This document shows, piece after piece, positions 57,028 through 62,836 of a stretch of DNA of 64,000 bases. Below the pieces are notes generated by a model that saw nothing but the letters and a program-made list of their open reading frames with translations, was not told the origin of the DNA and made no database searches. Positions within the stretch are counted from its first letter, which is position 1. The number at the start of each line of letters is the position of its first letter. This DNA is from a virus: positions 1 through 64,000 of IMG/VR virus record IMGVR_UViG_3300045971_000895. One strand, 5' to 3'. The position numbers were made by a program, and so were the translations under genes.

Positions 57028-60000
57028 ATGACCGTCTCGCTGTGCATGATCGTGCGCGACGTCGAGGATAAGCTCGACGCCTGCTTGGCCTCTGTAGAGA
57101 AGTACGTCGACGAGATCATCATCGTCGACACCGGCTCTGTGGATGGAACGAAGGAAGTGGCGAAGAAGCACGGCGCCAAGATCTTCGACTTCAATCCCGA
57201 GACGAACCCCGACAGCTTCCTCCTCGATAACGAGGATACCGGAGCCCCACCCCCATACACGGGGAAGTGGATCCTCGCTGACTTCGCCGGCGCCAGGAAC
57301 CTCTCGTTCGAGAAGGCGACCAGCGACTTCGTCTTCTGGGTCGACTCGGACGATGTCGTGCAGGGAGCCGAGAACATTCCCTCCATCCTGAAGGAGCTCG
57401 AGGGGATGGATAAGGGGTGTGCCTGGTTCCGCTACGACTACGCGTTCTCGCCAGAGGGCAAGCCGATCTGCCAGCTGTGGCGCGAGCGGATCATTCGGAA
57501 GGGGGCCAGCAAGTGGGTGAATCCTATCCACGAGGTCTGCATCCCGATCCTGGGCTCCAACCATAAGAACTACGACTCCGTCGTCATCTCTCACCGCAGG
57601 GAAGAGCACCACGCCCCTCCGGTCGCGCACCGCAACTACAAGGTGCTGAGGAAGCAGTACGAGAAGGAGAAGGACAGCAAGACCTTCGATGCCAGGACGC
57701 TCTTCTACTTGGGCAACGAAGCGAAGTTCATGAATGTCGATGAGGCCATCGGCTACTTCGAGCAGTACCTTCGCCTCTCTGGTTGGGACGAGGAGCGCAC
57801 GGTGGCGCGCATCCTCGTGGGTCAACTCTACGAGGTGAAGGGAGACATCGAGGCAGCCTTCCGGTCCTACTCCTCTGCGAGCTACGACTTTCCGAGTAAC
57901 CCCGACTCGTACTTCGCGCTCGCTCGGCTGGCCTACAAGAAGAACGACTGGGCCAAGTGCATCGCGTTCACGGAGGCCGGACTGGCCTTGGGAAACCCGC
58001 ACTCGGCCATCATGTACAACCCGCTGGATCGCAGCTACCACCCGCACACCTACTACAACGTCGCGCTCAACAACGTGGGCAGGGTCCTGGACGCTTCGAA
58101 GTCTTGCGAGGCAGGGCTCGAGGCGATGCCCGAAGACGCCAATCTCCAGTTCAACAAGAAGCTCTACGACGACTACCTGGCGAAGAATCCGCAACAGGAG
58201 AAGCAGCCAACGGCTCAGTCGATCTCTCTCGATGGGGCCTCCATCGACGCCCCTCCCAACCTACCTTCAGGAGTCATCGCCACGTTGGGGCTCCAGATCT
58301 GGAAGGAGCTTCTTCGCTACGATGAGGTCGTGAAGGCGAAGGCTTTCTTGGAGTCCCTTCCCTACGTCACCGAAGGGAGCGAGGCGCTCGAGAAGGCGAA
58401 GAAGCTCACCGACGAGATCCTCGAGTTCGCCACCTCGCCCACCAAGATGCAGGCGCAGTACAACGACTGGCACAAGGTGGAAGAGGCCATCCCCTTCAAC
58501 GCGTACGTTCCGAGCAATTGGTCCCAGTACCCGCGCTACAGCTCGGTCATGTCGTTCTTCGATGGGAAGCCGCGGCTGAGGGTCCTCGACATCGGCTGCC
58601 AGGACGGATGGATCTCGAACCGGATCGCTCGCATGGGCCATTCGGTGGTCGGCCTCGACTTCAGCCAGGCCTACCTGGAGATCGCCAAGAGGAACGCCAG
58701 GAGCGAGGGGCTCGACACCACTTACATCCTCGGCTTCATCGAAGAGCTGCGGAAGGCTGTGCCAGAGAAGTACGATGTCGTCATCTGCACAGAGGTCATC
58801 GAGCACTCAGCGGACCCCGACAAGCTCATCAAGGACATCAAGAGCGTCTTGAAGCCCGGTGGGACGCTCCTCCTCTCGACGCCGAAGGGGCACTGGTTCC
58901 AAGGGCAGCCGCACCAGTACGCTTCCGCGTGGAACGCCCCTCGACAGCACATCCAGGCCTTCACCGTGAAGTCGCTCGCCAAGACCTTGGCGAAGCACCT
59001 GCACGTCAAGTCCTGCCACGAGATGCCGATCCCCATGCCGGACGTACCTGGGCAGGGGACTCTCTTCGCCGAGGCTGTCTTCGAGCTCTCTCTTGAGAAA
59101 GGCGGACACGACATCGTCTTCTACACAGGGCCGGCGTGGGAATGGTGGAACGCCAACAGCCCCTACCGCGAGGGCACTGGAGGGTCTGAGCTGGCGTGCG
59201 TGGAGATGGCGAAGGCCTACGCCCAGATGGGCCATCGAGTTCGCGTCTATAGCGACTGCCCCGGGATGGAGGGCATCTACGACGAAGTGGAGTATCTGCA
59301 CTTCTCTCGAGCCCAGCCTGGGACACTCACCTGCGATGTCTTCATCAGCTCGCGGCAGCCCACGGTTCTTCCGAGTCTCCAGGTGACCGCCAAGGCGAGG
59401 TTCCTCTGGGTCCACGACATCCATGTGGGAGCGCCAAGCGCGCAGGTGCACGAGGCCCTGCTCACCTACGACAGGATCTTCTGCCTCTCCAAGTGGCACA
59501 AGGAGTACTTCCTCAGCGTCTACCCCTTCCTCGATCCAGAGAAGGTGGTGGTGTCGAGGAACGGCATCCTCATCGAGCGCTTCCCTCATGCCGACCACGC
59601 CAAGGAGAACAAGCTCATCTACACCTCCTCTGGCAACCGCGGCCTCGAGCTCCTGCTGGACCTCTTCCCCCGCATCAAGGAGAAGGTCCCCGACGTTGAG
59701 CTCGACGTCTACTACGGCTTCAACGTGTGGAGGGCCGCAGCCCGGAACAGCCCAGACGAGCTGGCCCAGATCGACCGCATCGAGAAGAAGATGAAGGAGA
59801 CCCCGGGAGTGAACGCCATGGGGAGGGTGAACCAGCAGGAACTCGCGCAGGCATGGCTTCGGGCCAAGGTCTGGGCCTACCCCACATGGTTCACCGAGAC
59901 CTACTGCATCTCGGCACTCGAGGCACAGGCTGCTGGTGCGGTCCCCGTGACCACCAACCTGGCGGCTCTCTCGGAGAACGTGTACTCGGGCTTCCTTCTT

Positions 60001-60213
60001 AGCCCTCCTCTGGACGAGGAGTACAACAAGGACTTCGTGGACGCAGTGGTGGAACTGCTCACCGACGAAGAAGAGAGGCAACTGCACGTCAAGCTGGGAA
60101 GAGAGACCGCCGAGAAGCTCACATGGAGCAGCCTCGCCCTCGACTGGCGCAAGCAGTTCGATGAAGTGATCGAGGCCGTGAAGGTGAACCCCATCCACAG
60201 GTTCGTGCCATGA
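57028..60213 (+). CDS. trifunctional GT2 glycosyltransferase / TPR / class I SAM methyltransferase / GT4 glycosyltransferase
   Basis: N-terminal GT2: IVRD...IIVDTGSVDGT and DxD in WVDSDDVV. Middle: VLDIGCQDGWIS...VICTEVIEH matches a SAM-methyltransferase Gly-rich motif. C-terminal: GT4 E-x7-E region ISALEAQAAGAVPV. Confidence 0.75.
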   Translation: MTVSLCMIVRDVEDKLDACLASVEKYVDEIIIVDTGSVDGTKEVAKKHGAKIFDFNPETNPDSFLLDNEDTGAPPPYTGKWILADFAGARNLSFEKATSDFVFWVDSDDVVQGAENIPSILKELEGMDKGCAWFRYDYAFSPEGKPICQLWRERIIRKGASKWVNPIHEVCIPILGSNHKNYDSVVISHRREEHHAPPVAHRNYKVLRKQYEKEKDSKTFDARTLFYLGNEAKFMNVDEAIGYFEQYLRLSGWDEERTVARILVGQLYEVKGDIEAAFRSYSSASYDFPSNPDSYFALARLAYKKNDWAKCIAFTEAGLALGNPHSAIMYNPLDRSYHPHTYYNVALNNVGRVLDASKSCEAGLEAMPEDANLQFNKKLYDDYLAKNPQQEKQPTAQSISLDGASIDAPPNLPSGVIATLGLQIWKELLRYDEVVKAKAFLESLPYVTEGSEALEKAKKLTDEILEFATSPTKMQAQYNDWHKVEEAIPFNAYVPSNWSQYPRYSSVMSFFDGKPRLRVLDIGCQDGWISNRIARMGHSVVGLDFSQAYLEIAKRNARSEGLDTTYILGFIEELRKAVPEKYDVVICTEVIEHSADPDKLIKDIKSVLKPGGTLLLSTPKGHWFQGQPHQYASAWNAPRQHIQAFTVKSLAKTLAKHLHVKSCHEMPIPMPDVPGQGTLFAEAVFELSLEKGGHDIVFYTGPAWEWWNANSPYREGTGGSELACVEMAKAYAQMGHRVRVYSDCPGMEGIYDEVEYLHFSRAQPGTLTCDVFISSRQPTVLPSLQVTAKARFLWVHDIHVGAPSAQVHEALLTYDRIFCLSKWHKEYFLSVYPFLDPEKVVVSRNGILIERFPHADHAKENKLIYTSSGNRGLELLLDLFPRIKEKVPDVELDVYYGFNVWRAAARNSPDELAQIDRIEKKMKETPGVNAMGRVNQQELAQAWLRAKVWAYPTWFTETYCISALEAQAAGAVPVTTNLAALSENVYSGFLLSPPLDEEYNKDFVDAVVELLTDEEERQLHVKLGRETAEKLTWSSLALDWRKQFDEVIEAVKVNPIHRFVP

Positions 60214-61352: not shown

Positions 61353-62836
61353 AGGGTGCTCTCGTCATCCCACCTTCGGCGTTCCTGTTGGATGCCCGAG
61401 TCTTCGTCAGCTTGGGCATCTTGAAGATCGCTTCGGCGCTCGAGGCCGCTAAGGTGCCGGTGGACGTCATCGACCTCTCGGGCGTCGCCAACTACCAAGA
61501 CGCCCTCAGCGACTACCTGCACAACAGCCGGCCGGCGTGGGTCGGCATCACGGCAACGACGCCGCAGATGCCCTACGTCACGGAGCTCTCTCGGCTGGTT
61601 CGCTCTCACGGCTCCAAGGCCATCCTCGGCGGCCCGCACCCAACCCTGACCCATGCAGCCTTCAAGAACGAGCACAAGGCCCACCGCGCCGGCCGCGGCA
61701 CCAAGGCCTGGGAGCAGCTCCTCGAGGACTTCGATGTTGTCGTGACCGGGGATGGTGAGAAGGCCATCTTCGAGGCCATCGAGAAGGGCTGCGGCCACGT
61801 CGATGCAGACGACCCGAAGAGCCCGCTCTGGATCAACGAGCAAGACCTGGCGGCCTACGCCCCGGCCCGCCACCTCGTCGACCTCGACAGCTACCACTAC
61901 ACCATCGACGGCGTTCGGGCGACGAGCCTCATCGGCCAGCTGGGCTGCCCCTTCCAGTGTGCCTTCTGCGGCGGCCGGGCCTCCCCGATGCTGCGCCGCT
62001 CGAGGGTGCGGACGGTGCCGGACATCATCGGAGAGATGACCCACCTGCACGACCAGCACGGCTACAAGGGGTTCATGTTCTACGACGACGAGCTCAACGT
62101 CGCGAAGAGCATGCCGACCCTCATGCGCTCCATCGAGGCGCTGGCGGAGTCGAGGAAGACGAAGTTCCAGCTCCGCGGCTTCATCAAGGCGGAGCTCTTC
62201 ACCGACGAGCAGGCCGCCTCCATGGTGGCCGCAGGCTTCAAGTGGATCCTGGTGGGCTTCGAGTCGGGGTCGCCGAGGATCCTGGAGAACATCCGGAAGC
62301 AGGCCACCGTCGAGGACAACACCCGCTGCCTCGAGATCGCCAGGCGCCACGGGCTGAAGGTGAAGGCCCTGATGTCCATCGGCCACGCCGGCGAGACGGC
62401 CGAGACCATCGCCGAGACCCAGCAGTGGTTGCTCGACATGAAGGTGGACGACTTCGACGCCACCATCATCACCACCTACCCCGGCACGCCCTACTACGAC
62501 GAGGCCATCGAGACGTCGCCCGGCGTCTGGACGTACACGGCCAAGAGCGGGGATCGGCTGCACGCCTACGCTCTCGACTACTCGAAGACCTCCGACTACT
62601 ACAAGGGCGACCCGAACGCCGGCTACAAGGCCTACGTATTCACCGACCACCTCTCGAGTGAGGGCCTTGTAGGTCTTCGTGGGCAATTGGAGGACAAGGT
62701 AAGGAGGGAGCTTTCTATTCCCTTCTACCAAGGCGCTCCTGCGGTACAGTACGAACATTCCATGGGGATGTCGGGACTTCCTGACACGATCCTCCGGTCC
62801 TCGCACTTCGCGACCGCGCAAGGGGTGGGGACATGA
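61350..62836 (+). CDS. cobalamin-binding radical-SAM enzyme (class B radical SAM, e.g. a C-methyltransferase-like)
   Basis: N-terminal B12-binding-like Rossmann region. Radical-SAM cluster motif CPFQCAFCGG (CxxxCxxC). ATGA overlap. Confidence 0.7.

Follow-up and report, generated by a model that had tools for sequence, protein, structure and literature searches.

A stretch of viral DNA of 64,000 nucleotides (positions 1 to 64,000 of IMG/VR virus record IMGVR_UViG_3300045971_000895; hereafter the window) carries, at positions 57028-62836 of the (+) strand, a cassette of three co-directional open reading frames (ORFs A, B, and C) that encode glycosyltransferase, methyltransferase, and radical S-adenosylmethionine (SAM) enzyme domains immediately downstream of a gene for a collagen-like fibre. 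Comparison supports the verdict that this cassette is probably a virion (fibre) O-glycosylation system. It would constitute a phage-encoded cytoplasmic protein-glycosylation system with the adjacent collagen-like fibre as its acceptor, a proposal that is given slightly better than an even chance, and the broader statement that some virion protein serves as acceptor is considered likely. Phage virion glycosylation is already known, as is the glycosylation of bacterial collagen-like proteins by an adjacent enzyme that joins a family 2 glycosyltransferase (GT2) to tetratricopeptide repeats (TPRs). New are a virus-specific GT2-TPR-(methyltransferase)-GT4 family, its recurrent siting, in numerous uncultivated phages, beside a gene for a collagen-like fibre or a capsid, and its occasional pairing with a widespread class-B radical-SAM family tied to nucleotide-sugar metabolism. 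The fibre gene, the cassette, and the next gene are as follows (position, strand, feature, basis):

52352-56953, +, collagen-like fibre, putative acceptor, 1533 aa (Pfam Collagen, G-X-Y triplets)
57028-60213, +, whole ORF A, 1061 aa (GT2, TPR, SAM methyltransferase, and GT4)
57028-57762, +, ORF A GT2 (GT-A) domain, aa 1-245 (Pfam PF00535)
57679-58197, +, ORF A TPR-like helical region, about aa 218-390 (family profile against TPR proteins)
58534-59037, +, ORF A class-I SAM methyltransferase domain, about aa 503-670 (Pfam)
59095-60213, +, ORF A GT4-type GT-B domain, about aa 690-1061 (Pfam)
60210-61352, +, ORF B, stand-alone GT4-type glycosyltransferase, 380 aa (Pfam)
61349-62836, +, ORF C, class-B radical-SAM enzyme, 495 aa (Pfam B12-binding and Radical_SAM)
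62833-64000, +, next gene, open frame to the window end (ATGA overlap with ORF C)

Glycosyltransferases of ORFs A and B

An earlier note on this DNA, made from the sequence alone, had described three coupled genes, and this was borne out by ATGA stop/start overlaps at each junction, i.e., at 60210 (A/B), at 61349 (B/C), and at 62833 (C/next gene). The fibre gene and ORF A are separated by a gap of 74 nt, with no overlap. Third-position G+C was high in ORFs A-C, as is typical of real genes (window G+C about 63%). The longest reading frame for gene C starts at GTG 61199, and the ATG at 61349 was adopted as start because homologues measure 495-497 aa.

The domains named in the earlier note (GT2, methyltransferase, GT4, TPR, and B12-binding radical-SAM) were all recovered with Pfam and a family profile. 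The GT2 domain of ORF A matched Pfam PF00535 (Glycos_transf_2) with 57.4 bits (cut-off 23.3) and carries the DxD motif as D106-S-D108-D109, in which D106, D108, and D109 were invariant in 21 homologues. Single-sequence Pfam matches to TPRs (near aa 270-320) remained below cut-off (TPR_2 22.8 versus 27; TPR_19 likewise), and phrog_13126 matched aa 84-381 (E 8e-39). A profile was built from the first 400 residues of 12 family members and searched against PDB sequences. It matched consensus TPR proteins (E 2e-36) as well as the TPRs of OGT, and it matched the glycosyltransferase domain of Listeria GmaR over the whole 204-residue chain (E 2.8e-27, compared to 1.9e-14 in the single-sequence search), SunS (E 1e-12) and ThuS (peptide S-glycosyltransferases), and GalT1 (serine-rich-repeat glycosylation pathway). 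Based on the matches to GmaR, SunS, ThuS, OGT, and GalT1, the nearest characterised glycosyltransferases are enzymes acting on proteins or peptides. The GT2 domain is thus predicted to be, probably, an initiating protein O-glycosyltransferase, and the TPR region is its probable acceptor-recognition module.

The Bacillus anthracis protein BclA has a Thr-rich collagen stalk with O-glycans that include a methylated, C-methyl-bearing sugar (rhamnose and anthrose on GPT repeats). Anthrose differs in its origin, being made by the antABCD enzymes without a B12 radical-SAM enzyme. The analogy with BclA, which had been drawn in the earlier note, was strengthened on the side of the enzyme, as the GT2-TPR part of ORF A resembles the protein O-GlcNAc transferase GmaR and has the layout of SgtA. 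GmaR, the flagellin O-GlcNAc transferase of Listeria monocytogenes (GT2 and TPR), is the best solved-structure match of the ORF A GT2 domain; it differs in having flagellin as acceptor, in acting as an anti-repressor as well, and in lacking a methyltransferase or GT4 fusion. Clostridioides difficile SgtA (358 aa) has its GT-A domain at aa 3-225 and, after it, four TPRs at aa 262-358, and its gene adjoins bclA3 (PMC7157674). In vitro, SgtA adds beta-O-GlcNAc to Thr of the collagen repeats of BclA3 (PMC7157674). It is a stand-alone bacterial enzyme, whereas ORF A is a viral fusion with a methyltransferase and GT4 and is accompanied by ORF B and a radical-SAM enzyme.

The methyltransferase domain of ORF A (aa 513-656) matched the Pfam families Methyltransf_23, 31, 11, 25, and 12 with 60-77 bits (Methyltransf_23: 77, cut-off 27), and its PDB matches include UbiG, a D-glucose O-methyltransferase, and WbdD. 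The usual form of the family is GT2-TPR-GT4 with a length of about 800-950 aa, and the methyltransferase insert is present in a subset only. The GT4 domain of ORF A (aa 854-1018) was matched by Glyco_trans_1_4 (PF13692) with 43.2 bits and Glycos_transf_1 (PF00534) with 40.8 bits, and ORF B by the same two models with 42.5 and 33.2 bits, respectively (cut-offs 27 and 26.4). Homologues of ORF B accompany ORF A-like genes at many loci. With regard to the catalytic motifs named in the earlier note, DxD, the E-x7-E of ORF A (E957-x7-E965, both Glu invariant), and the CxxxCxxC of ORF C were found as described; ORF B departs from this, as its motif is a variant of E-x7-E, namely E285-x7-D293. As a side observation, intein/Hint domains occur in ORF A homologues among P0133, P0162, P0188, and P0238 (possibly P0010, which has a large unexplained insertion) and in the radical-SAM homologue P0052.

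Collagen-like fibre and linkage to structural genes

The fibre matched Pfam Collagen (E 1.4e-70) and PHROG tail-fibre families (up to E 3e-130, driven by the repeats). It comprises a short collagen run (aa 42-83), a non-collagen insert of ~590 aa (aa 84-673), the G-X-Y stalk (aa 674-1334), and a C-terminal globular domain of ~200 aa. Among its 223 G-X-Y triplets, Thr occupies the Y position in 101 (45%) and Gln in 36; the abundance of GPT, GAT, and GVT that had been remarked upon earlier corresponds to 33, 40, and 22 triplets, respectively. At 0.286 nm per residue, the standard rise of collagen, the stalk of ~670 residues has a calculated length of ~190 nm. Glycosylated Thr at the Y position stabilises the hydroxyproline-free cuticle collagen of Riftia. 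A single-sequence AlphaFold2 model of the C-terminal domain, meant for comparison with the C1q fold of BclA-like proteins, had a predicted local distance difference test score (pLDDT) of 36, and a search for relatives of this domain in IMG/VR returned only the known close relative. The stalk is interrupted 11 times by AAITG (once SAITG), an interruption also seen in relatives; the ~590-aa insert is absent from the otherwise homologous fibre of locus L003. Directly before the collagen-like fibre gene that precedes the ORF A-like gene, a gene of 198-199 aa was observed in three distant phages (L095 1666-2265, L096 7101-7700, L106 1008-1604), which may be a conserved fibre-associated partner.

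Proteins identical to ORF A and ORF C are also encoded on a 198-kb JGI contig, and two relatives have an ORF C of 88% and 84% identity, the former on a contig of 153 kb that IMG/VR lists and the latter on one of 196 kb. The gene order in these relatives is a collagen-like fibre (with the same N- and C-termini), an FkbM-type methyltransferase, and ORFs A-B-C, followed 3' of ORF C by ORFs of 401, 301, 101, 715, 94, and 215 aa and then by a protein of 1487 aa that matches the baseplate-wedge family phrog_6 (E 3.6e-14) at a distance of 5.5 kb downstream of the cassette. Because of this order of fibre, cassette, and baseplate, the cassette is placed in the late structural block of a large (~200-kb) tailed phage, between fibre and baseplate, which upholds the structural locus proposed earlier. 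The six ORFs between the radical-SAM and baseplate genes in the relatives had no PHROG or Pfam family match, nor had the large upstream ORFs of the window (40355-48543), so that the structural assignment is carried by the fibre and one baseplate-wedge match. In the gene at 62833 no enzyme domain was found; it probably encodes a structural protein and opens the series of genes that runs up to the baseplate module. A DNA search of deposited phage genomes with the cassette gave no match, and promoter and terminator scans gave background level only. Two further genes occur in relatives and are missing from the window, i.e., the 218-aa FkbM-type methyltransferase between fibre and ORF A (L003 4996-5652, L005 4999-5655) and, in one relative, an ORF of 943 aa before the FkbM gene (L005 2124-4955); the cassette content thus varies even within this clade.

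Relatives of ORF A were found in at least 524 IMG/VR stretches, and the family gave five weak matches in 185,579 bacterial and archaeal genomes (one per species; patterns from the TPR region), three of them in metagenome-assembled genomes (MAGs) of Patescibacteria/Saccharimonadales or Dependentiae. Being abundant in viral contigs and almost absent from bacteria, the ORF A family is regarded as a virus-specific lineage. For the analysis of gene neighbourhoods, a collagen-like ORF was defined as one with at least 45 residues in G-X-Y runs of at least 8 triplets. Such an ORF was present within 10 kb at 23 of 73 non-redundant ORF A-like loci (within 3 kb at 17 of these), compared to 2 of 71 control loci, i.e., viral loci anchored on a radical-SAM gene and drawn from different phage populations (Fisher p = 3e-6); both positive controls carry an ORF B-like glycosyltransferase. 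Among the closest homologues (17 non-redundant loci with a GT2-TPR match of E < 1e-50), 11 have a collagen-like ORF within 10 kb (9-10 of them within 3 kb), in all 11 cases upstream and on the same strand; the ORF A gene has a collagen-like neighbour in the window and in three close relatives, too. The earlier note had raised the question of whether the linkage is constant; it is frequent among the closest relatives and not absolute. The order fibre, one small gene, ORF A-like, and ORF B-like recurs at L095, L096, L097, L106, and L108 (ORF A identity 33-44%), and L101 (ORF A 44% identical) has the A-B-radical-SAM trio of the window, preceded at a distance of about 4.7 kb by a collagen-like gene. 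In the partner collagens, 20-95% of the Y positions are occupied by Thr, and in those of the closest homologues 33-61%. At 9 of 66 non-redundant loci, a major capsid gene, in place of a collagen gene, is located 1-5 genes upstream of the ORF A-like gene, e.g., in the Manatee Spring podovirus MW202524. Its recurrence next to structural genes in distantly related phages speaks for an acceptor in the virion, which in the lineage of the window is most likely the collagen-like fibre.

Radical-SAM enzyme and sugar-tailoring genes

ORF C matched the B12-binding family PF02310 (46.4 bits, cut-off 32.1) and Radical_SAM PF04055 (76.4 bits, cut-off 29.5), and its CxxxCxxC motif was located at 61946-61969 (C200-PFQ-C204-AF-C207, with C200, C204, and C207 invariant). 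An AlphaFold2 model (pLDDT 81.5) was compared via Foldseek, in which TsrM, AprD4, MgmA, OxsB, CysS, and TokK were the top structures with template modelling (TM) scores of about 0.5-0.63; the closest PDB sequences were MgmA/QCMT (9ccb, E 2.4e-16) and AprD4 (E around 1e-16). These class-B enzymes (TsrM, AprD4, MgmA/QCMT, OxsB, CysS, and TokK) share with ORF C the N-terminal Rossmann B12-binding domain and the CxxxCxxC core, and ORF C differs from them in its identity of 14-20%, its own conservation (about 60% across phyla and phages), and its glycan-gene context. In a search against the NCBIfam models of the class-B subfamilies (BchE, PhpK, HpnJ, HpnR, QCMT, AprD4, TsrM, BzaD, and C-methylases of ribosomally synthesised and post-translationally modified peptides (RiPPs)), none reached its cut-off (bits versus cut-off: BchE 102.8/481.35 as the best, PhpK 91.4/600, HpnJ 84.8/577.6, and AprD4 69.9/500), and a literature search for a characterised member of the ORF C family found nothing. 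By sequence and predicted fold, ORF C is assigned to the class-B fold as part of a family without a characterised member. AprD4 has the same domain layout yet is a dehydratase working without cobalamin, i.e., the fold alone does not decide the reaction.

The ORF C family comprised 4682 matches at E <= 0.001 among 8000 candidates scored. The listed homologues beyond the close relatives are about 57-61% identical, and those named by source come from Acidobacteriota, Planctomycetota, Nitrospira, Elusimicrobia, and a lineage of the candidate phyla radiation. The earlier note had considered a radical-SAM enzyme unusual in a phage structural locus: this holds for deposited phage records, where only a distant match was found in a non-structural context (Streptomyces phage SF3), and it does not hold for uncultivated phages, with relatives of ORF C in at least 286 IMG/VR stretches. 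The immediate neighbours at 71 viral radical-SAM loci were dominated by GT2, GT-B, RXYLT1-like, methyltransferase, and sugar dehydratase/epimerase families, and a 4,6-dehydratase/epimerase homologue was found within 10 kb at 30 of the 71. Five other contigs were examined, at least two of them from named bacterial MAGs, and on four the radical-SAM gene has glycan genes as neighbours (glycosyltransferases, a DegT aminotransferase, sugar epimerases, or a Bac_transf initiating enzyme). Two ORF C orthologues (P0057 and P0085; 59% identity) carry, fused to their C-terminus, a domain that resembles glucose-1-phosphate cytidylyltransferase (E 5.6e-54, short of the equivalog cut-off), and at L179 (3474-5825) the cytidylyltransferase-like fusion is situated between a Bac_transf gene and another NTP_transferase gene. 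Clustering of the radical-SAM neighbours gave no obligatory partner, and the enzyme sits in variable glycan islands. Because of the glycan-gene neighbours and the cytidylyltransferase-like fusions, ORF C is predicted to tailor a nucleotide-hexose, or possibly a glycan; that it does so by C-methylation is a guess.

Three sister loci, i.e., L095 and L096 (both collagen-linked) and L090 (collagen-like ORF two genes upstream), have a classical NDP-sugar C-methyltransferase (Methyltransf_13/14) and no radical-SAM enzyme. L095 and L096 add a 4,6-dehydratase and L090 a gene of the NDP-sugar epimerase/dehydratase family, and L095 also has a cupin and an oxidoreductase. The sugar genes of these sister cassettes are located at:

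L095, 14930-16126 and 17048-18013
L096, 18081-19301 and 19717-20673
L090, 14886-16160 and 19296-20615

Among 66 non-redundant IMG/VR ORF A-like loci, a C-methyltransferase was present at 7, a radical-SAM match at 5 (3 at orthologue level), and both at none; the numbers are too small for significance, and a mutual exclusion of the two enzymes is suggestive only. The sister cassettes fit the guess of C-methylation by ORF C, again with numbers too small for a test, and branched or C-methyl deoxysugars are suggested as a recurring theme.

Proposed mechanism and putative acceptor

From the domain identities established above, we infer each step of the following mechanism. The cassette would be expressed late together with the structural genes, and the GT2 domain of ORF A, guided by its TPRs, would recognise the fibre polypeptide and transfer an initiating hexose or N-acetylhexosamine from a host UDP-sugar to the Y-position Thr of G-X-T, as SgtA does on BclA3. 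Further sugars would be added by the GT4 domain of ORF A and by ORF B, and the SAM methyltransferase domain would O-methylate and thereby cap the glycan, with relatives adding an FkbM-type methyltransferase. ORF C would tailor a sugar by radical chemistry, probably as the nucleotide-hexose donor, with C-methylation as the leading guess and deoxygenation as a possibility. The resulting glycan coat may stabilise or protect the ~190-nm hydroxyproline-free triple helix and could tune adsorption. Extended to the families as a whole, it is tentatively proposed, and on balance doubtful, that ORF A and its relatives are virus-specific multi-domain Thr O-glycosyltransferases of large phages for collagen-like fibres (or capsids) that would take over the role of prolyl hydroxylation in triple-helix stabilisation, and that the ORF C family tailors nucleotide-hexoses (by C-methylation or deoxygenation), with the classical C-methyltransferase/4,6-dehydratase pathway as an alternative route.

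Several points weigh against the fibre as the acceptor or against parts of this scheme. The proposal that the cassette glycosylates the fibre was derived wholly from homology and gene neighbourhood, and the choice of the fibre as putative acceptor from neighbourhood only. No collagen-like ORF was found within 10 kb at 50 of the 73 ORF A-like loci, i.e., the linkage is frequent and not universal, and the comparison with the radical-SAM-anchored control loci is one between different phage populations. Accessory genes are known to accumulate in tail-fibre regions (PMC7029224), and Thr- and Gln-rich Y positions may be common in phage collagens generally. The likeness to SgtA, in which ORF A aa 1-390 have the same layout and the same kind of neighbour, is one of architecture and context and not of measured homology. 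The nearest structures to ORF C include protein and small-molecule methylases as well as a dehydratase, at 14-20% identity. Finally, no nucleotide-sugar synthesis genes were found among the window ORFs scanned (64 kb), so the host or the remainder of the ~198-kb genome would have to supply the donors.

The acceptor could instead be another virion protein (capsid, sheath, or proteins encoded downstream), with the adjacency of the fibre being incidental. This is unlikely, though to be reckoned with, since an ORF A-like gene follows the major capsid gene at 9 of 66 loci, the majority of loci have no nearby collagen-like ORF, and the cassette is coupled by an ATGA overlap to its downstream gene and separated by 74 nt from the fibre gene. 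It is opposed by the collagen gene as the recurrent upstream neighbour among the closest homologues, by the stalk, which offers 101 Y-position Thr, and by the characterised enzymes of closest architecture, which include one that acts on the Thr of collagen repeats. In mycobacteriophages, phage glycosyltransferases decorate structural proteins of the virion (Freeman et al. 2023, cited in PMC12619734). As far as that citing source relates, it is the C-termini of capsid and tail-tube subunits that are glycosylated there, and it mentions no collagen-like acceptor, TPR-GT2 fusion, or radical-SAM enzyme. Somewhat less likely is that the cassette remodels a host surface polysaccharide (lipopolysaccharide O-chain, capsule, or wall glycan) as a block to superinfection or an aid to release. 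Pelagimyophages carry glycosyltransferase/radical-SAM cassettes in a tail-fibre hypervariable region, which were read as modifying the host O-chain (PMC7029224); the likeness consists in a cassette embedded among the tail-fibre genes of large uncultivated phages, and the study considered neither a protein-glycosyltransferase signature nor a linkage to collagen (PMC7029224). Radical-SAM homologues within polysaccharide clusters on bacterial-MAG contigs, one of them beside a Bac_transf initiating enzyme, point in the same direction. Against this reading, ORFs A, B, and C have no membrane-spanning segment (maximum 19-residue Kyte-Doolittle mean 0.97-1.62, in Rossmann-core segments), the Pfam scan of the cassette found no flippase, polymerase, or polyprenyl-phosphate transferase, and the hallmarks of Gtr-type serotype conversion (membrane flippase, bactoprenol glucosyltransferase, and membrane glycosyltransferase) are absent from it. 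Furthermore, the GT2-TPR part matches protein and peptide glycosyltransferases, and the ORF A family hardly occurs in bacterial genomes and is repeatedly found beside structural genes.

A modification of the fibre polypeptide by ORF C itself, e.g., side-chain C-methylation as by MgmA/QCMT or RiPP C-methyltransferases, with the glycosyltransferases acting separately, is judged improbable. The nearest matches do include the glutamine C-methyltransferase of methyl-coenzyme M reductase (9ccb) and RiPP C-methylase models, and the stalk is Gln-rich at Y (36 of 223 triplets), but all of these are distant similarities whose scores fall far short of the family cut-offs, and most loci with the radical-SAM enzyme are without a collagen gene. 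The cytidylyltransferase-like fusion, the dehydratase/epimerase genes (30 of 71 loci), and the glycosyltransferase neighbours point to nucleotide sugars instead. Hypermodification of phage DNA against restriction, which is generally known as a common role of phage glycosyltransferases (cited in PMC12619734), is highly improbable here. Neither Pfam nor PHROG matched a DNA-glycosyltransferase family in the cassette, a hydroxymethylase-type gene was not seen in the window scans, and a TPR-bearing GT2 akin to protein glycosyltransferases is not the architecture of a DNA glucosyltransferase. The cassette also belongs to the late structural block, and the window's genes for replication and nucleotide metabolism are far away, at 32-39 kb.

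To our knowledge, there are only a few phages for which experiments have demonstrated glycosylation of the virion, and the ORF A family is a possible marker for predicting glycosylated virions in uncultivated phages. O-glycosylated Thr could explain how long hydroxyproline-free collagen stalks are built and stabilised and would link phage biology to the BclA/SgtA paradigm. This is relevant to host range, to stability in the environment, to how therapeutic phages are recognised by the immune system, and to engineered bacterial collagens. The radical-SAM family represents a target for enzyme discovery, as its context and the cytidylyltransferase-like fusions point to a testable nucleotide-sugar substrate.

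Elsewhere in the window, genes for a class II ribonucleotide reductase, a helicase, a ligase-like protein, and an AAA ATPase were identified, with the helicase, ligase, and ribonucleotide reductase genes at 32-39 kb. A gene for a sigma-70-like factor (50434-51297; phrog_351, E 3.4e-7) is located about 1 kb upstream of the fibre in the same orientation and may drive late expression of fibre and cassette. A protein of 879 aa (5201-7840, - strand) matched Pfam MVP_shoulder (E 6.8e-28) and Vault_3 (E 1.5e-9) and no PHROG family; such a major-vault-protein-like gene is unexpected in a phage genome. An ORF of 314 aa (2152-3096, - strand) matched the PHROG transposase family phrog_10081 (E 1.8e-16). 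In 55 further ORFs of the window, scanned as a pool, Pfam identified an Acb2/Tad1-hairpin protein (anti-defence sponge family), a response-regulator receiver, YpsA-SLOG, DprA, hemerythrin, Cpn10, and an HNH endonuclease.

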